DNA from: a virus
Length of the DNA: 52,407 bases
UHGV virus genome: UHGV-0113213
Direction: 5' to 3' (one strand)
Shown here: piece by piece, positions 5,593-13,311 of the stretch
How the letters are laid out: each line of letters starts with the position of its first letter
How positions within the stretch are numbered: the first letter of the stretch is position 1
Notes under the pieces: model-generated
What the model saw: the letters and a program-made list of their open reading frames with translations, nothing else
Databases searched by the model: none
What the model was told of the DNA's origin: nothing
Made by a program: the position numbers and the translations under genes

Positions 5593-6123
5593 TTAACTTA
5601 CAACGTCTAAGGCGTCTTTATTGTTTGTTGTGTCTATGCCTAACGATCCGACGTTTGAACCTACTTTCATTTCTCCTAATAGGATTGGCACTGGTCTACC
5701 CTGTCCTACCCTGTTTTCTATGCTGGTGTAAGTGTTATTAGTTATGGTGTTATCCTGCGCGCTTTCTGATGATGTTTTTACCTTCATGTTGCGAGACATA
5801 AAAATAGAAAAAGCGACGCTGACAACTGATATACCAATCATAATCCAGCCAATCACACCAATACCTGCAATACCACCTTCAACTATTGGCGCAATAATTA
5901 CCGTAGTTCCATCTGGATATTTGCTATTAACAGCCGCTGGCGCGGTCTTTTCGTTGTAATCTTTCCCGGCAATTCGTAAGCGCAAAGGTGTATTTAAAAA
6001 CGCCTTTTTAAATTCCTGATTCTGCGCGGTCAATAAGCGAAGCCCTTGCGCTGGCGTTTCAACGTTTAAACACACTTTGCTGTAATATCTTCGAAGATTG
6101 CCCGTAAATCTAAATTTGAGCAT
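5593..6123 (-). CDS. I: Tail assembly protein I
   Basis: 176 aa with C-terminal hydrophobic Gly-rich segment and conserved end (ILLGEMKVGSNV) like lambda I; between K and J. Confidence 0.75.
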   Translation of the reverse strand: MLKFRFTGNLRRYYSKVCLNVETPAQGLRLLTAQNQEFKKAFLNTPLRLRIAGKDYNEKTAPAAVNSKYPDGTTVIIAPIVEGGIAGIGVIGWIMIGISVVSVAFSIFMSRNMKVKTSSESAQDNTITNNTYTSIENRVGQGRPVPILLGEMKVGSNVGSLGIDTTNNKDALDVVS

Positions 6124-6797
6124 TTATCAGATCTCCATATTGAATGCGTTTGTCGAACATAAGCAGGCCGCATTTGCTCGCGGCGGCTTAATAATCCGGC
6201 ATGGTCATGATGCAAAACCGTGTTATCACCCAGGTAAATCATTGCGTGACACGGGTCAGCGCCTTTGAATGGCTGGCGAATGATCACATCACCAGGCTGT
6301 ATGCTTTGCGCATCAACCTGATAAAACCCGTTCAATGGCAGGTTTTTTAAATACAGGTTTTCACCGCGAAGCCACCAGCCATCAAGGCGCTCGAAGTCAG
6401 GCAGATCTACACCGCAAAGGTGATATGCGTCGCGGAAAAGCGCGTAACAGTCTGTCGTTCCGTGTACGAATTTACGGCCTAGCAGGTGCGCAACCGGACG
6501 GAATTTCCTGATCTTGCCGCCGGAATATAAAAACCAGGGTAGCCCGGAAATAACCTGTTGCTGTCGATCCCGCGCTGACAATACAGGAATATCACCAACG
6601 TGGGAGTGGAAAACGGCGGTTATAACGCCCAATTCGTCCGCCTTGATGTAATCGTCCGGCGAAATCTTGAAGCTGTTGTAAGGCGTTTCAGACACGTTAG
6701 CGCACGGGTAAAAATACTCGTTATCTATTACAAGTCCGCAAACTTCCTCAAACGGATGCGCGGCGGCATAACGCGACATTTTGTCTTCCATCCCCAT
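6066..6797 (-). CDS. K: Tail assembly protein K (MPN/JAMM plus NlpC/P60-like domains)
   Basis: Motifs HSHVGD (JAMM-like) and Cys-containing NlpC/P60-like C-terminus; start moved to ATG at 6795-6797, 2 nt after L stop; overlaps I start as in lambda. Confidence 0.8.
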   Translation of the reverse strand: MGMEDKMSRYAAAHPFEEVCGLVIDNEYFYPCANVSETPYNSFKISPDDYIKADELGVITAVFHSHVGDIPVLSARDRQQQVISGLPWFLYSGGKIRKFRPVAHLLGRKFVHGTTDCYALFRDAYHLCGVDLPDFERLDGWWLRGENLYLKNLPLNGFYQVDAQSIQPGDVIIRQPFKGADPCHAMIYLGDNTVLHHDHAGLLSRREQMRPAYVRQTHSIWRSDKCSNLDLRAIFEDITAKCV

Positions 6798-6799
6798 GA

Positions 6800-7504
6800 T
6801 TAACCTACCTTGCTGGAACCAGGGAAACAGGAGATCGGCAGTGCTGCCGGACGCGGGAAACGCAAACGGCAACCGCTAAGGCGGTGGCTGCATTTGTCTA
6901 ACGTTGGGTCACTTGTTGGTGTATCTTTATCAGTTGCGACCGGGCCGCCAGAATACATGCACCCGTCGCCTCTGTATTGCCACTGACAAACGTCAGCAAG
7001 GATGGTGCGCCCTGGGATAACGGCTTTATCTGCATCAATTGGCGTTGACAATTCATATTGCACCTGATCCGCTGTTTCTTCGCTCATTGCTTCAACGACG
7101 TAAAAAGATACAGCCTCAATAGATGGATCTGCGTCTGGATTGCCGTTAGGGAAGTTAACGGCGTCCAGGTATTTAACCTCCACCTGGCGGCGCGTAACCT
7201 TCATGCCTCTTAGGTCGTTGAAATCGTTATTCATCCCCGTAATGAGTCCGCCGATGTTGGCTACAACCATTTGAGGGCGCGAATAAACGCCTTCGTTTTT
7301 CATTTCGAAGCCAGTAGCCTCGATCGGGTAGCTGTTGTAAGCCACACCCTTCCAGATAACCGGGCCGTAATAGCCATTCGCGCCGGAATGGAAGCGGATA
7401 ACCTCGCCACCCAGGGGCGTGAGGTCTAATTCAAACAAGTCAATTACCGCGCCGACTCCGGCATCGACGGAATCAATAATCATTTCTCTCGGAATATTGC
7501 GCAT
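6800..7504 (-). CDS. L: Minor tail protein L
   Basis: 234 aa; similarity to lambda L as recalled (VTGM, VRRKV, RFLDAVNF-like, FPGR, C-x-W-x-YRGD-C, CSKxLSGC motifs). Confidence 0.85.
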   Translation of the reverse strand: MRNIPREMIIDSVDAGVGAVIDLFELDLTPLGGEVIRFHSGANGYYGPVIWKGVAYNSYPIEATGFEMKNEGVYSRPQMVVANIGGLITGMNNDFNDLRGMKVTRRQVEVKYLDAVNFPNGNPDADPSIEAVSFYVVEAMSEETADQVQYELSTPIDADKAVIPGRTILADVCQWQYRGDGCMYSGGPVATDKDTPTSDPTLDKCSHRLSGCRLRFPRPAALPISCFPGSSKVG

Positions 7505-7522
7505 TTTCTCACCTTGTCATTC

Positions 7523-7587
7523 TGTGATCTGCGTCACGCTAAATCATACCAAAATGGATTGATCGCGGTTTTTACAATATGTATATT
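7523..7587 (+). promoter_or_regulatory. Moron promoter: CRP-like site TGTGATCTGCGTCACG (7523-7538), TACCAAAATGGA element, -35 TTGATC (7559-7564), 17-bp spacer, -10 TATATT (7582-7587)
   Basis: Hexamers and spacing read directly; CRP-like centre ~63 bp upstream of predicted start site (class I-like position). Confidence 0.5.
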
Positions 7588-7633
7588 TTACTCAAACGGA
7601 AGCATAGTTAACAAAATGGCGCGGAGGTGCGTT

Positions 7634-7822
7634 ATGACTGAAAAGCTATGGAAGTTGACGGTATTCATGACAGACGGTAGGGAAAAGGTTATCGCCCTGT
7701 ATGACGACGAGGGTGAAGCATTGGTTGACGCGCTTTTACTTGCTGAGGATGACCGCCTTTTGGGATACCAGATCGAACCTGTCAAATATGAGGCTAACAA
7801 AAATGAAAAAATACAGTCTTGA
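7634..7822 (+). CDS. Small acidic protein (62 aa), moron gene 1 between L and M
   Basis: ATG with GGAGGTG RBS; strongly acidic composition (DDEGEALVDALLLAEDD); opposite strand to tail operon. Confidence 0.6.
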   Translation: MTEKLWKLTVFMTDGREKVIALYDDEGEALVDALLLAEDDRLLGYQIEPVKYEANKNEKIQS

Positions 7823-8150
7823 TGTGTGGTTAAGTGGTAGCAAGGAGTGTTTCGGATTATTTGATAGCGAAGAAGTAGCCCTGGAAGAAGGCAGGATTCT
7901 TGAATGTAGTTTAGGCCATCCAGTGAAATATGCTGCTAATCCGGTACAGATAGTTGATGAGGTGGAAGATATGAACCCGAAAGATATTAATGGTAGCTTC
8001 ACTGCTTATTATGCAGATTCTATGGACCAGTCTTGCCCTGGTGAAATACACGCAAAAGGTTTCCCGGCTGACGATCCAGAAGCAAAACGCGAATACGAAA
8101 AAGCGGCGAAAGATTTCTGTATCGATAACCTTTCAGCATTCGATAAATAA
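7803..8150 (+). CDS. Acidic protein (115 aa), moron gene 2
   Basis: Start MKKYSL overlaps end of previous gene in another frame; acidic; no recognisable family. Confidence 0.6.
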   Translation: MKKYSLDVWLSGSKECFGLFDSEEVALEEGRILECSLGHPVKYAANPVQIVDEVEDMNPKDINGSFTAYYADSMDQSCPGEIHAKGFPADDPEAKREYEKAAKDFCIDNLSAFDK

Positions 8151-8159
8151 GGCGGCAAC

Positions 8160-8408
8160 ATGGGGCGGCGCAATCACGGTGATTATGTGTACACGTTGAA
8201 ACAGGCCGCCCGCCTCATCGGTTATCATGAACACGAATTTATTGATTTGCTGATTGAGCGCGGGATACTGTACCAGGTCTGTTTAACGCTGTACCCGAAA
8301 GCGAAATACCTACATGAAAAGTTATTCATCATCATGACGGATGAAAACCAGGTTAACCATTCATTCGTCACTGATAAGGGCGTTAATTATCTGCGTGATA
8401 ACTTATAG
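8160..8408 (+). CDS. Small protein (82 aa) with possible HTH (YTLKQAARLIGYHEHEFIDLLIERGIL), moron gene 3
   Basis: ORF 10 nt after previous stop; helix-turn-helix-like segment by eye. Confidence 0.5.
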   Translation: MGRRNHGDYVYTLKQAARLIGYHEHEFIDLLIERGILYQVCLTLYPKAKYLHEKLFIIMTDENQVNHSFVTDKGVNYLRDNL

Positions 8409-8530
8409 GTGACTGATTATAAAAATAAAAGTTTTGGCGCTAATAATAATGGGGTTGATAGTATTTGGCGTTCATGCTGTAGATCTGGACTGGAAAACGA
8501 TAGCAGAAAATATAGCATTAATGGAAATAG

Positions 8531-8568
8531 AATAAAAATAACCCCGCTTCGCGCGGGGTCGTGTTTAT
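8531..8568. terminator. Bidirectional terminator after moron cassette (stem CCCCGC/GCGGGG; stronger U-run on minus strand)
   Basis: Hairpin with A-run upstream and T-rich run downstream on plus strand. Confidence 0.55.
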
Positions 8569-8762
8569 ACGCCATCAACCAAAAATAAAACCTCCTTCCC
8601 TTCCCGGGATCTACACCCAACGTACCCATCACCAACGTCGTGAAGATACCATATATCGCCGTTGTCAGCTTTTACAGTAAGGTCGTTGATCTCATAGTCG
8701 TCAAACAATGTAAAAGCGTAAGTTTTGTCAACTACACAAGTCCCGTACATAACAACCCCCAT
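8565..8762 (-). CDS. Small protein (65 aa) inserted between M and L; member of the small paralog family seen at 28676-29581
   Basis: Start overlaps M stop (TAATG); shares C...F...Y and D-x-G-D-x-W-Y motif pattern with the tandem paralogs. Confidence 0.5.
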   Translation of the reverse strand: MGVVMYGTCVVDKTYAFTLFDDYEINDLTVKADNGDIWYLHDVGDGYVGCRSREGKEVLFLVDGV

Positions 8763-9115
8763 TAGCCAACAACTTGCTCAAACGTTGCGTTTAGCGTGTA
8801 CAAAGGCCCGTCTTTAGTCATACTCCATTGCCGACAGACAAAAAGCCTTTGCACGTTATCCATTGACGGCGACCAGTAAAAAGCCTCGACCGCGCCGCGC
8901 GCCCTCAAGAATGCTTCCGCCTGGATTGCTACGTTTCCACCATCACCACATCCGGCGCTACTGCCTTTAAACACCAGGGTGTAGCTATCAAGCAATGGAT
9001 TGATACCTTTTACCTGTCTTTGCTCATAACCATCGCCCAGCTTAACAACAGATACGTCTGGCTTCCTGGTCACGCTGTAGCTTCTTTGCGGCGTCCATCT
9101 GAACACTTCCGGCAT
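8762..9115 (-). CDS. M: Minor tail protein M
   Basis: 117 aa; FRW, GDGY.QR, ATFEQVV motifs as in lambda M; GGGGG RBS. Confidence 0.8.
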   Translation of the reverse strand: MPEVFRWTPQRSYSVTRKPDVSVVKLGDGYEQRQVKGINPLLDSYTLVFKGSSAGCGDGGNVAIQAEAFLRARGAVEAFYWSPSMDNVQRLFVCRQWSMTKDGPLYTLNATFEQVVG

Positions 9116-9150
9116 AAAACCCCCACAAGTTACATTTTGTATATATCTTT

Positions 9151-9178
9151 ACGCGCTTCTACGCGAAAAATAAGATCA
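9151..9178. repeat. TACGCG direct-repeat element TTTACGCGCTTCTACGCGAAAAATA (copy 1)
   Basis: Near-identical 25-27-bp copy at 21418-21445; both lie just upstream of minus-strand structural genes (M, portal). Confidence 0.6.
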
Positions 9179-9200
9179 TTGTCACAATGATTATAGCTAG

Positions 9201-9242
9201 TTTACAAAATGGCTTCACATAGCACGCAACAAGATGTATATA
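9201..9242 (+). promoter_or_regulatory. Moron promoter: TTTACAAAATGGC element, -35 TTCACA (9214-9219), 17-bp spacer, -10 TATATA (9237-9242)
   Basis: Read directly; about 40 bp upstream of the 9283 start codon. Confidence 0.5.
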
Positions 9243-9282
9243 GAAAGCAAGAAGAAAGTAGTACCAACGAAGGAGGCCCAAA

Positions 9283-9438
9283 ATGAAACGCTATGTAGTA
9301 GTAATGCTAAATAACGCATTCGAACAAGTGGAAATAGCAATCGTTAAGGGTTTCGACGACGCATTCAAATACGGTCAATTCATGATGAATGCGAAAGAAG
9401 ATGAATACCGGGACTTCTTCCTGAAGGCACTTAACTAA
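9283..9438 (+). CDS. Small protein (51 aa), moron gene between M and H (not in ORF track, below 60 aa)
   Basis: ATG preceded by AAGGAGG RBS; MKRYVVVMLNNAFEQVEIAIVKGFDDAFKYGQFMMNAKEDEYRDFFLKALN. Confidence 0.5.
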   Translation: MKRYVVVMLNNAFEQVEIAIVKGFDDAFKYGQFMMNAKEDEYRDFFLKALN

Positions 9439-9455
9439 GGATGATGGGGTGAGTT

Positions 9456-9710
9456 ATGAAACTGGTAGCGATTGACAGAAATCTGAAAGCACAGAAAAAC
9501 GCACAGGACCGGATCATCAAGAAAGGTAAGGAATTACTTAAAGCCTTTCTGAGAAAAGAAGTTTACCCCAAAAAGTTACGCGACGGTTACGGATACAAAA
9601 TGGATATCAATCTTGATTGGAGGCTGTTTAGCGAAGATTTGAAGGTTTGGTTAATTGTTGAGCACCGTGCCTATAACAAGTTATGTGGCGTGAAAGGCAC
9701 TCATAAGTGA
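9456..9710 (+). CDS. Small basic protein (84 aa), second gene of M-H moron
   Basis: RBS GGGGTGAG; Lys/Arg-rich; followed by terminator. Confidence 0.55.
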   Translation: MKLVAIDRNLKAQKNAQDRIIKKGKELLKAFLRKEVYPKKLRDGYGYKMDINLDWRLFSEDLKVWLIVEHRAYNKLCGVKGTHK

Positions 9711-9761
9711 GTCGAGATATTCGAAAGGGGATATATCGCGCGGAATGGTCGTTTATAAATA

Positions 9762-9801
9762 CGAAAAATAACCCCGGCATTGCACCGGGGTTTAGTTTAT
9801 T
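9762..9801. terminator. Bidirectional rho-independent terminator (stem CCCCGG/CCGGGG) after moron and after H
   Basis: Hairpin flanked by A-run and T-run; H stop codon lies in the T-run. Confidence 0.65.
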
Positions 9802-12139
9802 TGCGGCGAGGTTGCAACATTCCGCCTGGTCTTTGAGATTCCCTTGTTATCATTTTCATGGCTACACGTTCCATTGTTAATTCAAGTCTGCGGCTGTCTT
9901 CGTCGCTGAATCCGTTCGTGGTCTGAATGCTGATACTGACAGGCATACTAATACCGCCACCGCCGCCAATATCACGGCCCGGAATAACTCTGCCGTTCTC
10001 GCCAGGGATCATATATTGATTGCCGTTAGATGTCTGGAATAGCTCCGGCCTGTTGTGTTCCCCTACGCGGTACATATTACCACCAATGACGCTACCACCA
10101 TTAAAGCGACCGCCGCCGAAAATTGACGTAGCCAGCGACATGATCGCAGTGAGCGCCGCCGAACCAGCCGCCGCCCAGCTACCGCCAGTTGACGCCGCAG
10201 TTGCCGCCGCTGCTGGGGCCGCCGCCGCAGCAATGCTTCCCTGAGCTGCTACCGCGCTTGCTGTTGTACTTGTTTGCGTGGCCTTGCTTTGTGTCTCCAT
10301 CATGATCTGATCTGCTATCCAGTTTGCAGCTATGTCTGAGAGTCTGTTACCGATATTGCCGAGTATATTGCTTCCTAAGTTAGCAAAAACATCACTCAAT
10401 GATTGAGTGCCGTTTAACAGGCCAACAAGCGCATTACTCATTCCGCCTTTAAGGCCATTAACACAATCACCGATAAGGCCGTTTGTGTCGCTTTGCGCCT
10501 GCCATTGTTCCCATTTCAGATCGCGGATCTGTTGCTCATAGGCTAACAATTCCTGTTTCTGTTGCGCTTCAGTAGCGCCCAGGTCTATAAGCATTTGCTT
10601 ACGGATGGCCCATTCATTTTGCGCCTGCTGGATGGGGTCAACTTCGCCTTTTAGCTGATCCATCGGGCTTACTATTTGTGACCATTTATCACGCAATTCA
10701 TCTACCGGAATTTGTGCTAATTCTTCTTTCAGTTCCTTGCCGATCCCTTTTTGCGCGGCGCGGTACTCAAGGAGCGTGATTTTACCCTGGGCAAATGCAG
10801 CATCAATGGCCTTGCCGTTCTCCAACGCTTTGCGCATGGCGGCGGCGTCTTTGTTGTACTGATCAGAAACGCTTATACCTTTGTCACCAAGCCGATCAGC
10901 TTCCGATTTCTTCTCTTTTTTCTGTTTTTTCGGCTTGTCTACTGGCTTGTCGAATCCGGTAATCGCTCCGTCATTGGCAGCATTCTGTTCATTTTTCCTT
11001 GCTTCTTCTGTAGCCTGGATTGCTGCGGTCAGATCATCCTGTAGTTGCATGACCTTGCCAACGGTCTTCCCGTATTTCTTCTCGTAGTTGCTGTTATATT
11101 CGTCGGTTTGCTCTCCTACTACCTCCTTCATCCATTTATAGCCATCCATTAGCGCCTTGATTGGCGTCACCATTGCGATGATCTTCTCTGCCACCTCTCC
11201 AGCCTTAACAGCCACATCATCAAACATGTCGATAAATTCGCTACCAGCCGTTTTGAGTGTGTCGAAGCAGGTTTTAGCGAATTTAGCGCCATCGCCAAGC
11301 CCTTTAACGCCTTTCGTGATCAAGTCGATAGCTGAAACAACGCCATCTGACACGCCAAAAAGATCATCCAACTGCTCAACAAGGCCCATAATTTCTACTT
11401 TAAGCTCATTGATAGCCATGCCGGATGTGCGCGGCAACTGAGCAAACTTATCGTTTGTTTCCTGCGTAGCCGCCTGTATTGCGTTAACCATCCTTTCAGC
11501 CGTGATCTTGCCGTCCAGCATTTCGGCGCGGAACTGGCCCATTGATAATCCCATATGGCGGGCCATTGTTTGTACGATGGTCGGCGTATTTTCAAGCAGG
11601 CTGTTAAATTCTTCGGCACGAAGAACACCGCCGTCGATAGACTGACGGAATTGACGCATTGAGTTAGACATCTGTTCCGCTGACGCGCCGCCTAATGCAC
11701 CCATTTTCTGAATAGTGCCAACCAGGTTAAGCAATTGCCCTTCCGTAGCGGAGGTGTTTTTTAGTGAGATAGCCAGGCCTTGCCATAATTCGCCAGTATC
11801 TTTCAGGCTCTGCCCCGTCTCCCTGGATATTGCTTTCAGGCCGTCGAAAACCCGTCCGGCGGACTCCGCATCGCCCGTAAGCATTTTGATTTTTACGCGA
11901 AGCATTTTTGCTTGCTCCGCCATATCCATAAATTGGCGCACAGCCTCCGCAGCAATTAGCAGATGGATAACCCTGGTCAGTGCCTTGATGGATGTTTTCA
12001 GGGTGTTTACCTGGCGGTCAGCCTGTTTTGCGCCGCGCTCTATACGATCAAAGGCCTGGTCTGCCTGTCGTTGTGCAACGAGAAGTTGACCAGTTTTCGC
12101 ATCAACTTCGTAATAAATTGTACCTACACTGGTAGCCAT
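9797..12139 (-). CDS. H: Tail tape measure protein H (780 aa)
   Basis: Long alpha-helical/Ala-Gln-rich protein with Gly-rich C-terminal region; position upstream of M-L-K-I-J. Confidence 0.85.
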   Translation of the reverse strand: MATSVGTIYYEVDAKTGQLLVAQRQADQAFDRIERGAKQADRQVNTLKTSIKALTRVIHLLIAAEAVRQFMDMAEQAKMLRVKIKMLTGDAESAGRVFDGLKAISRETGQSLKDTGELWQGLAISLKNTSATEGQLLNLVGTIQKMGALGGASAEQMSNSMRQFRQSIDGGVLRAEEFNSLLENTPTIVQTMARHMGLSMGQFRAEMLDGKITAERMVNAIQAATQETNDKFAQLPRTSGMAINELKVEIMGLVEQLDDLFGVSDGVVSAIDLITKGVKGLGDGAKFAKTCFDTLKTAGSEFIDMFDDVAVKAGEVAEKIIAMVTPIKALMDGYKWMKEVVGEQTDEYNSNYEKKYGKTVGKVMQLQDDLTAAIQATEEARKNEQNAANDGAITGFDKPVDKPKKQKKEKKSEADRLGDKGISVSDQYNKDAAAMRKALENGKAIDAAFAQGKITLLEYRAAQKGIGKELKEELAQIPVDELRDKWSQIVSPMDQLKGEVDPIQQAQNEWAIRKQMLIDLGATEAQQKQELLAYEQQIRDLKWEQWQAQSDTNGLIGDCVNGLKGGMSNALVGLLNGTQSLSDVFANLGSNILGNIGNRLSDIAANWIADQIMMETQSKATQTSTTASAVAAQGSIAAAAAPAAAATAASTGGSWAAAGSAALTAIMSLATSIFGGGRFNGGSVIGGNMYRVGEHNRPELFQTSNGNQYMIPGENGRVIPGRDIGGGGGISMPVSISIQTTNGFSDEDSRRLELTMERVAMKMITRESQRPGGMLQPRRK

Positions 12140-12159
12140 GATTTAACCTCATGCAAAAA

Positions 12160-12221
12160 TGTGATCTGTGTATCTATTTTATACAAAATGGCTTTACTTC
12201 AACGACTCCATTTTGTATAAG
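12160..12221 (+). promoter_or_regulatory. Lipoprotein moron promoter: CRP-like TGTGATCTGTGTATCT (12160-12175), TACAAAATGGC, -35 TTTACT (12193-12198), 17-bp spacer, -10 TATAAG (12216-12221)
   Basis: Read directly; CRP-like centre ~61 bp upstream of predicted start site. Confidence 0.45.
12179..12220. repeat. Perfect 13-bp inverted repeat TTATACAAAATGG / CCATTTTGTATAA with 16-bp spacer in the H / lipoprotein divergent region
   Basis: Arms at 12179-12191 and 12208-12220 are exact reverse complements. Confidence 0.75.
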
Positions 12222-12266
12222 GAAGCTAAAGGGAATGGTCAGTAAATCAAGTTAGCGTGGTGGGTT

Positions 12267-12926
12267 ATGAAACGGTTAGCAAAAGTGGCAATGATTGCGG
12301 CGGTATTGGGTCTGGTTGGTTGCAATGAGGATAATGAAAAAGCGCCTATAGTGACCAATCAAGAGCAACAAGCATTAGTAGAGAAAAATGCTAAATGGCT
12401 TGCAGAACAACAAGCAAAACAAGCCGCATACGATGCACAGTTAGAAAAAGAAAATGCTGGTAAACAGTGGCTTGTAGTTGAAAGAAAAGATGATATGCAG
12501 GACGCAAAAAACGTATTCCTTTTTGTGAAAGCAGAACAATTCAGCGGAAGTCTTGATGCTTTCCCGACACTGAAGGCACAGGATAAGAATAAACCGGTAT
12601 TAACAATCGCTTGCCAGGGTAATAAAACAAAAATGTTCGTAGCATGGTCACACCATGTAACTGACGCCGGGGACACTACTTATATTAACTACCGGATCGG
12701 CGTTCACAAAGCTGTAGCTACTGAGTGGTGGCGGTCAACTAATTATAAAGCTCTTGGATTATGGGACGGCAAAAAAGCCATCCCAATGATTAAAAAACTG
12801 GTTAACGAAAAACAATTCATCATTGAAGTAGTGCCGGAAGCTGGCGACATTGAGAAAGCAGTGTTTAACATTGATGGTCTTTATAACCACATCGACAAAG
12901 TGAAAAACGCTTGCAACTGGAATTAA
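12267..12926 (+). CDS. Lipoprotein (219 aa), moron between H and tail chaperone
   Basis: Signal peptide with lipobox LVGC (MKRLAKVAMIAAVLGLVGCNE); opposite strand to structural operon. Confidence 0.7.
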   Translation: MKRLAKVAMIAAVLGLVGCNEDNEKAPIVTNQEQQALVEKNAKWLAEQQAKQAAYDAQLEKENAGKQWLVVERKDDMQDAKNVFLFVKAEQFSGSLDAFPTLKAQDKNKPVLTIACQGNKTKMFVAWSHHVTDAGDTTYINYRIGVHKAVATEWWRSTNYKALGLWDGKKAIPMIKKLVNEKQFIIEVVPEAGDIEKAVFNIDGLYNHIDKVKNACNWN

Positions 12927-12936
12927 GGGGTAAATC

Positions 12937-13311
12937 ATGAAAAAAATAATCAAAGCGGTTCTCATTGGTGTTATGGCTTTAGCTCTTACAGGGTGCGCAA
13001 GATCAACTGATTTCGTTAAGTTAGCTGATAAAAATTTGCAAGTTGGAATGACTTGTGAGCAAGTGAATAAAATAATGGGGGAACCACAAAGAATCGAGCA
13101 TGACGGTAATTATAGTTATCACGTATGGTATTCAGTAACCAGCACGATAGGATTTACTTACATGGATGTTGAAGAATTATCCCCTTCAAGGGTTATCGCA
13201 AAGTTTGATAACTGCATCCTAAAAGAATGGAAAGATCGCAGTAAGGCAAAGTCTGTATACAATACAATCACACACAGTTCACCAGGTACAGCAATTAAAG
13301 ATTTCAATTAG
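12937..13311 (+). CDS. Lipoprotein (124 aa), second moron gene
   Basis: Signal peptide with lipobox LTGC (MKKIIKAVLIGVMALALTGCA). Confidence 0.7.
   Translation: MKKIIKAVLIGVMALALTGCARSTDFVKLADKNLQVGMTCEQVNKIMGEPQRIEHDGNYSYHVWYSVTSTIGFTYMDVEELSPSRVIAKFDNCILKEWKDRSKAKSVYNTITHSSPGTAIKDFN

Follow-up and report, generated by a model that had tools for sequence, protein, structure and literature searches.

Here we describe a two-gene cassette on the plus strand of the phage genome UHGV-0113213 (the window, i.e. the whole stretch of 52,407 nucleotides that was analysed), which is inserted into a minus-strand tail operon between the start of tail gene M (9115) and the stop codon of the tape measure gene (H), and which encodes proteins of 51 and 84 amino acids, designated A51 and T84. 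Our main finding is that T84, through its match to Pfam family PF24732, is a new member of the RelE/ParE toxin superfamily; the toxin-like half of the pair is already labelled in RefSeq, where T84 is named 'ParE family toxin-like protein' (WP_000779577.1). A51 is an orphan protein. We tentatively favour a reading, to which we give somewhat less than an even chance, in which the cassette is a lysogeny-type toxin-antitoxin-like moron with a toxin of the RelE/YoeB/YafQ kind.

T84 matched the Pfam profile PF24732, 'ParE-like toxin domain' (ParE_like), over positions 2-67 of 67 with E = 2.2e-11 and 44 bits (gathering score 24.4), and all T84 homologues carry this domain. The protein also matches phrog_1525, a group of unknown function. 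The family is small, as a profile search of 1.8 billion cluster representatives returned 10 matches. T84 had no match in NCBIfam or PADLOC, and among the known defence systems covered by PADLOC nothing was found for A51 or T84. Searches of PDB sequences with phmmer and with a profile gave no toxin match, and when T84 was compared by hhalign with approximate sequences of YoeB, RelE and YafQ, no probability rose above about 1%. A literature search retrieved no mention of PF24732 or of 'ParE family toxin-like'.

The fold of T84 was predicted with AlphaFold2. An alignment including family members at 26-52% identity yielded a confident model with a predicted local distance difference test score (pLDDT) of 87.4 and a predicted template modelling score (pTM) of 0.75; an alignment restricted to close homologues gave a pLDDT of 57. 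In this model, two short strands at the N-terminus lead into a helix, after which come three strands and a final helix at the C-terminus (beta-beta-alpha-beta3 plus helix); toxins of the superfamily have a small alpha/beta fold in which a strand and a helix from the N-terminus pack against an antiparallel sheet of three strands. When the model was searched with Foldseek, YoeB ranked at the top (probability 0.97), followed by YafQ, HP0894, ParE2 and HigB, and across both fold searches the best PDB matches were toxins of the RelE/ParE superfamily (YoeB, YafQ, RelE, HigB, ParE) with almost no others among them. In a viral structure library, the best matches were 'ParE-like toxin domain' proteins of jumbo phages, with template modelling (TM) scores of 0.7-0.8. 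Because of the PF24732 match and the predicted fold, T84 is placed in the RelE/ParE toxin superfamily at the level of fold; the scores of the Pfam and fold matches are modest, and no sequence similarity to characterised toxins stands behind the assignment. The suggestion of a toxin-antitoxin-like module, which the original prediction had offered from the small two-gene architecture, thereby has real support for its toxin half, encoded by the second gene.

K40, L41, R56 and H70 are invariant across the T84 family, and G44, N74 and Y/F73 are nearly so, down to 26% identity. Since invariant polar residues suggest an active site, K40, R56 and H70 are candidate active-site residues. The mRNA interferases of the RelE/YoeB/YafQ type use basic or His/Tyr catalytic residues, which lie on the face of the sheet and at the C-terminus, and the invariant residues of T84 might be the equivalents of R61, R81 and Y87 of RelE or of H50, D67 and H87 of YafQ.

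A51 is mildly acidic, rich in aromatic residues and very strongly constrained. It matches phrog_29810, a group of unknown function, and yielded no match in Pfam, NCBIfam, PADLOC or PDB. Its homologues were found only in phages and prophages of the mEpimmI type, at 76-100% identity. A beta-alpha-alpha-like pattern had raised the suspicion of a ribbon-helix-helix antitoxin, a candidate that found no support, as there was neither a Pfam match nor an hhalign signal with ParD, RelB or CopG. In many relatives a longer form of A51 with 68-76 residues has been called. These calls are artefacts, because the intervening stretch carries indels of 0, 1 or 2 nt among lineages; in the window, the upstream ATG is out of frame.

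Both A51 and T84 are encoded by bona fide protein genes and not by chance open reading frames (ORFs), because the ratios of nonsynonymous to synonymous substitution (dN/dS) are low, both ORFs are intact in all IMG/VR loci surveyed, and T84 matches PF24732 above the gathering score. Median pairwise dN/dS values over 11 loci were 0.04 for A51 and 0.06 for T84, indicating strong purifying selection, with synonymous sites near saturation between the window and mEp021. A survey of IMG/VR through A51 yielded 44 distinct loci, in all of which the 51-residue A51 and the 84-residue T84 were intact and adjacent with a spacer of 17-18 nt. The slot between M and the tape measure gene ranged from 685 to 1570 bp in these loci. 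Among 5426 complete E. coli genomes, 32 contained the cassette, always on the chromosome, and both genes were annotated in 31 of the 32. The same two genes occur at the same place in six relatives whose annotation was inspected, where they are labelled hypothetical, and the matching region of the E. coli M1/5 prophage is 99.9% identical to the cassette of the window. Several T84 alleles (P0034-P0040, P0102) are frameshifted, all of them in the A-rich run AGAAAAGAAG...CCCCAAAAAG (codons 32-48, window 9549-9599). These were considered as evidence of toxin decay and left unused for this purpose, as they may stem from misassembly of homopolymers or reflect real inactivation at a slippage-prone site.

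According to DNA searches, the window represents the group of mEp021-like (mEpimmI) temperate E. coli siphophages and prophages, with matches to MagusPhagus (91%) and to mEp021, mEp554, mEp013, mEp010, mEp044 and mEp515 (82-85%). Its lambda-like tail genes I, K, L and M and the tape measure gene are all encoded on the minus strand (Table 1). The cassette shows the features of a moron: it runs on the plus strand inside a minus-strand operon, it has its own terminator, and its base composition deviates, the guanine plus cytosine (GC) content being 0.40-0.42 as compared with about 0.50 in the flanking tail genes and the GC skew changing sign. The picture of a separate opposite-strand insert of two genes, 51 and 84 residues long and the latter lysine-rich, between the H stop and the M start was thus borne out, and every coordinate given for it in the original prediction proved correct. 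A51 and T84 form the invariant head of the slot, downstream of which the content varies. In mEp021 (L002, 4102-5436), mEp013 (L010, 4382-5692) and mEp515 (L012, 4002-4508), variable cargo follows T84, consisting of homing-endonuclease-like genes (HNH_3; T5orf172 fused to treble-clef zinc fingers of the DUF4379/CapR type) and tiny ORFs. In the window, the slot is at its minimum and free of such cargo.

Table 1. Features of the tail region of UHGV-0113213 (positions in the window).
Feature	Position	Strand	Remarks
Tail gene I	5593-6123	minus	
Tail gene K	6066-6872	minus	
Tail gene L	6800-7504	minus	
ORF, 62 aa	7634-7822	plus	L-M insert; weakly similar to the 115-aa ORF (E = 5e-4)
ORF, 115 aa	7803-8150	plus	L-M insert; weakly similar to the 62-aa ORF
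ORF, 82 aa	8160-8408	plus	L-M insert; ANT/KilAC antirepressor domain, E = 1e-6
Bidirectional terminator	8541-8559	both	end of the L-M insert
Conserved ORF, 65 aa	8565-8762	minus	just downstream of M, between M and terminator
Tail gene M	8762-9115	minus	PF05939
Leader/regulatory region of the cassette, 167 bp	9116-9282	plus	conserved, non-coding; on the minus strand, 5' leader of M
Candidate sigma-70 promoter	9214-9219 (TTCACA), 9237-9242 (TATATA)	plus	17-nt spacer; inferred transcription start near 9249
Shine-Dalgarno sequence AAGGAGG of A51	9270-9276	plus	6 nt ahead of the ATG at 9283
A51, 51 aa	9283-9438	plus	ORF with ATG start; pI 5.14; putative neutralising partner
Ribosome-binding site GGGGTGAG of T84	9446-9453	plus	inside the 17-nt spacer ahead of the T84 ATG
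T84, 84 aa	9456-9710	plus	ATG start; 18% Lys; pI 9.96; RelE/ParE-superfamily toxin-like, Pfam PF24732
Bidirectional intrinsic terminator	9770-9792	both	stem-loop AACCCCGG-cattgca-CCGGGGTT, T-runs on each side
Tape measure gene	9797-12139	minus	PF20155; stop codon 9797-9799
Lipobox protein, 219 aa	12267-12926	plus	third insert; LVGC; RefSeq 'TagO'
Lipobox protein, 124 aa	12937-13311	plus	third insert; LTGC

The layout of the cassette is that of a type II system: two small co-directional genes, an acidic product first and a basic one second (isoelectric points (pI) of 5.14 and 9.96), separated by a spacer of 17 nt and each preceded by a ribosome-binding site. The AAGGAGG sequence claimed for the first gene was located 6 nt ahead of its ATG, and a GGGGTG motif is kept in the A51-T84 spacers of relatives. 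Gene order, sizes, spacing and the acidic/basic contrast match the arrangement of relBE, yefM-yoeB and parDE.

Ahead of the cassette lies a leader in which the window and six sequenced relatives share 83-94% identity. Conservation of the leader equals that of the coding sequence; for comparison, the window and mEp021 differ at about 55% of the synonymous sites of A51. Among 44 distinct upstream sequences, the blocks TTTACGCG-N4-TACGCG, ATTATA, TTTACA (9201-9206), TTCAC (9214-9218) and CAAG-TGTATA (9231-9241) are invariant or nearly so. Part of this conservation may be explained by the minus-strand role of the same DNA as the 5' region of M. The direct repeat TTTACGCG-cttc-TACGCG (9150-9167), which has a spacing of one helical turn, is conserved in all relatives; locus L022 has TACGCA in both copies. 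At 9175-9191 lies a palindrome of 17 bp without mismatch, ATCATTGTcACAATGAT, which occurs only in the window's own lineage and found no support as an operator, as it is not kept in relatives with an identical A51 allele. A search for structured RNA in the slot with Rfam returned only a snoRNA match at chance level (E = 0.21).

The upstream promoter proposed earlier fared less clearly. The two hexamers, TTCACA and TATATA, do stand at the positions given for them, directly preceded by TTTACAAAATGGC (9201-9213), and overlap two blocks, TTCAC and TGTATA, that are nearly invariant in the 44 upstream sequences. The site has 9 of 12 consensus positions and its -10 hexamer does not end in the canonical T, on account of which it was not listed in a consensus promoter scan; matches of this kind do not exceed chance, which would give 5.2 +/- 2.3 of them per 2.6 kb. 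We regard it as the best candidate, and a reasonable one, for a promoter of the cassette.

The bidirectional terminator, by comparison, stood as claimed. Its GC-rich hairpin with T-runs was detected on both strands, the energy on the minus strand being -16.3 kcal/mol (z = -2.4), and terminator-like sites in the region numbered 6 as against 2.3 +/- 1.4 in shuffled sequences. Equivalent terminators are annotated in mEp554, mEp010, mEp013 and mEp515. On the plus strand it ends the cassette, and on the minus strand it starts 4 nt past the tape measure stop codon. Because it thus lies directly after the tape measure gene and upstream of M, transcripts of the late tail genes have to pass it. The phage group has been described as dependent on Nus factors, with antitermination of the lambda-N kind (PMC11893012), and a terminator-resistant late tail transcript is consistent with this description.

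In the reading that we tentatively favour, the tail operon of this temperate phage of the mEp021-like (mEpimmI) group would carry the cassette as an insert with transcription of its own, a moron or 'noncontiguous operon', and A51 and T84 would form a type II toxin-antitoxin-like pair. T84 would most likely be a ribosome-dependent mRNA endonuclease of the RelE/YoeB/YafQ type, which the acidic A51 would neutralise through direct binding. Transcription of the pair would start in the conserved leader, run antisense to the late tail mRNA and stop at the bidirectional terminator, and the lysogen would be expected to express both genes. If transcription of the labile partner were switched off, prophage addiction and/or abortive infection would be expected. 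What we infer in this scheme is that T84 is a toxic RNase, that A51 neutralises it, where the promoter lies and when the pair is expressed. The restriction of the A51 partner to the temperate clade among PF24732 members fits the need for immunity in a lysogen. The mEpimmI genome paper does not discuss the A51 and T84 genes (PMC11893012), and the mEp021 paper reports virion mass spectrometry with gp67 and gp68 going unmentioned in its text.

Several observations weigh against A51 being an antitoxin to T84. Neither an antitoxin domain nor a DNA-binding domain was found in A51 with Pfam, NCBIfam, PADLOC, PDB or hhalign, and hhalign detected no similarity to ParD, RelB or CopG. No conserved operator-like palindrome was found in the leader among the relatives and the 44 distinct sequences. 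A51 is more conserved than T84, and the usual pattern in type II systems is an antitoxin that is less conserved than its toxin. The commonest A51 allele (25 loci) occurs together with 10 different T84 alleles, which fall into three classes and share as little as 65% identity. The distant members of the PF24732 family occur singly in virulent phages, sharing a strand with the small early genes around them, and none of the members examined had a neighbour that was A51-like or carried an antitoxin domain. Least compatible with A51 as an indispensable antitoxin is locus L023 (2501-2928; ENA ERZ1034943 NODE_16 and three similar contigs), in which a CAA to TAA change creates a nonsense codon at position 32 of A51; T84 is undamaged and matches the allele of the viable phage MagusPhagus exactly, and the conserved upstream blocks are intact as well. 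This objection would weigh less if the nonsense codon had a polar effect on the expression of T84 or if translation restarted at Met34/35. In other loci the cassette has decayed differently. L022 (GCA_946056325.1, 2830-3215) has a diverged A51 (54 residues, 75% identity) alone in the slot, with a terminator hairpin directly after it and T84 gone; in L017, an E. coli genome, T84 is truncated and A51 intact. Both patterns fit a toxin-antitoxin model, as the decay seen mostly does. Of the toxin-antitoxin-like module as originally proposed, the toxin half therefore stands on the PF24732 match and the fold, whereas the antitoxin half is left with an A51 devoid of a detectable antitoxin domain, T84 relatives that lack a partner elsewhere, and two genes that are separable in nature (L022, L023).

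Much of the same evidence bears on the main rival reading, to which we give a little less weight than to the favoured one, namely that T84 is a stand-alone PF24732 effector serving the phage, for example in host takeover, superinfection control or anti-defence, and that A51 is unrelated and merely co-transcribed. Members of PF24732 that stand single among the early genes of virulent phages, next to neighbours neither A51-like nor antitoxin-like, would be expected if the family acts alone, and so would an A51 that persists by itself under its own terminator (L022), a T84 that persists beside a nonsense-truncated A51 (L023), and the free reassortment of A51 and T84 alleles. In several E. coli genomes the DNA match stops near T84 codon 17, a recombination breakpoint. 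A51 moreover looks compact, aromatic-rich and highly constrained, unlike a fast-evolving antitoxin. However, strict adjacency with a spacer of 17-18 nt in 44 of 44 viral contigs speaks for a functional pair, and among the loci examined none was found that had T84 and a fully deleted A51. A basic protein with a toxin fold made from a prophage would normally need neutralisation, and the acidic/basic pairing suits a neutralising partner.

Two further explanations appear improbable to us. In the one, the pair is a toxin-antitoxin system in which T84 is ParE-like, i.e. a DNA gyrase poison of the type whose inhibition depends on a C-terminal segment, and not a cleaver of mRNA on the ribosome. The invariance of K40, R56 and H70 does not separate RNase from gyrase activity; the RNase-type members, however, outrank ParE in both fold searches, the C-terminal tail is missing from distant family members, and some depositors name the jumbo-phage members 'YafQ-like ribonuclease toxin'. 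The other, to which we likewise assign a low probability, has T84 as a degenerate, non-toxic RelE-fold protein with a role tied to its position, e.g. in the expression or assembly of M and H via antisense transcription or protein binding. Such a role would account for the cassette being the constant head of the tail-operon slot in every member of the phage group, for the high conservation of the leader, which on the opposite strand overlaps the M 5' region, and for the tolerated nonsense allele of A51. Set against this, homology to tail assembly factors, named beforehand as an outcome that would speak against a separate module, was not found for A51 or T84 in Pfam and PHROG, where no similarity to tail or chaperone families appeared. 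The cassette also runs opposite to the tail genes with the low GC content typical of acquired cargo, T84 relatives lie far from tail genes in other phages, and the invariant polar residues suggest an active site.

The relatives of T84 in other phages occur in T7-like early regions (L069, 2444-2653; L068, 2501-2788; L013; L014), where a T7-type RNA polymerase gene immediately follows one of them and another adjoins a T7 gp0.4-like gene, as well as in Rak2/121Q/K64-1-like jumbo phages and in Sortsne-like phages. The early position in T7-like phages suggests an early, host-directed role of the family in virulent phages. A broader proposal, which we hold to be distinctly doubtful, is that PF24732 is a phage-specific branch of the RelE/ParE fold deployed as the phages' own effectors and present as partner-less early genes in virulent T7-like and jumbo phages, and that the temperate mEpimmI clade alone recruited A51. 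This small folded protein without a DNA-binding domain, unrelated to known antitoxins, would then either found a new family of antitoxins or be an independent factor able to work also as an orphan, as in L022.

Two other inserts were observed in the tail region. A second low-GC plus-strand insert lies between L and M (7514-8762). Its small plus-strand ORFs were considered as paralogues of A51 and rejected (BLASTP E = 8 and 2.6). A third low-GC plus-strand insert (12140-13311) lies between the tape measure start and the next minus-strand tail gene. The mEpimmI paper (PMC11893012) studied Lpp lipoproteins that act in superinfection exclusion, and the two lipobox proteins of this insert are probable relatives of these.

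As it stands, the cassette is a typical prophage cargo module, and the practical gain is mainly better annotation; under the favoured toxin-antitoxin reading, as under that of a stand-alone effector, it is ordinary prophage cargo of a known kind. Should T84 be an active toxin held by A51, then A51 would found a new antitoxin family, and a first functional handle would be gained on PF24732, an uncharacterised family that extends across T7-like, jumbo and temperate coliphages. Retention of the gut-prevalent mEpimmI prophages, or immunity through abortive infection, could also be explained by such a pair.

In comparison with established type II systems, T84 resembles the toxins of the RelE/ParE superfamily in being small (84 residues) and basic and in having the same predicted topology, and its gene stands behind one for a small acidic protein, the order also found in relBE, yefM-yoeB and parDE. 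Unlike these systems, A51 has no recognisable antitoxin domain and the partner is not conserved across the PF24732 family. The nearest precedent in concept is PaaA2-ParE2 from a prophage of E. coli O157:H7 (PaaR2-PaaA2-ParE2; PDB 5cw7, 5czf), where a toxin of the RelE/ParE fold is neutralised by a tiny antitoxin devoid of a DNA-binding domain. The cassette shares with it a prophage-borne protein of the RelE/ParE fold and a tiny partner, ParE2 being among the fold matches of T84. PaaA2 is largely disordered and a third gene, paaR2, provides regulation, whereas A51 looks compact and the slot has no regulator gene; the two systems are not related in sequence.

With regard to its position, the cassette recalls the 'noncontiguous operon' of phi80, in which antisense taiEcA is made in the lysogen and falls when Q-driven late transcription is on (PMC11364771). 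Like taiEcA and the tail-region morons of lambdoid phages, it lies in opposite orientation in a late structural operon, has its own terminator and a lower GC content, and sits in a variable neighbourhood; by analogy with taiEcA, it would be expected to be on in the lysogen and dampened by late transcription. The likeness is one of analogy; neither A51 nor T84 is homologous to the Tai proteins, which have a mass of about 26 kDa.

The closest kin of T84 are the PF24732/phrog_1525 proteins of RaK2, 121Q, K64-1, fHe-Yen9-04, Sortsne and T7-like phages. T84 is a member of this group by its hidden Markov model score, has predicted structures of the group superposing on it in the TM range given above, and shares the motif K-L...R...(E/T)HxxYN with them. 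In contrast to the members from virulent phages, which lie on the same strand as their neighbours and have no A51, the mEpimmI clade forms a temperate branch with A51 as partner, and it is further set apart from the distant members by an extra conserved C-terminal tail and by its antisense position in the tail operon.

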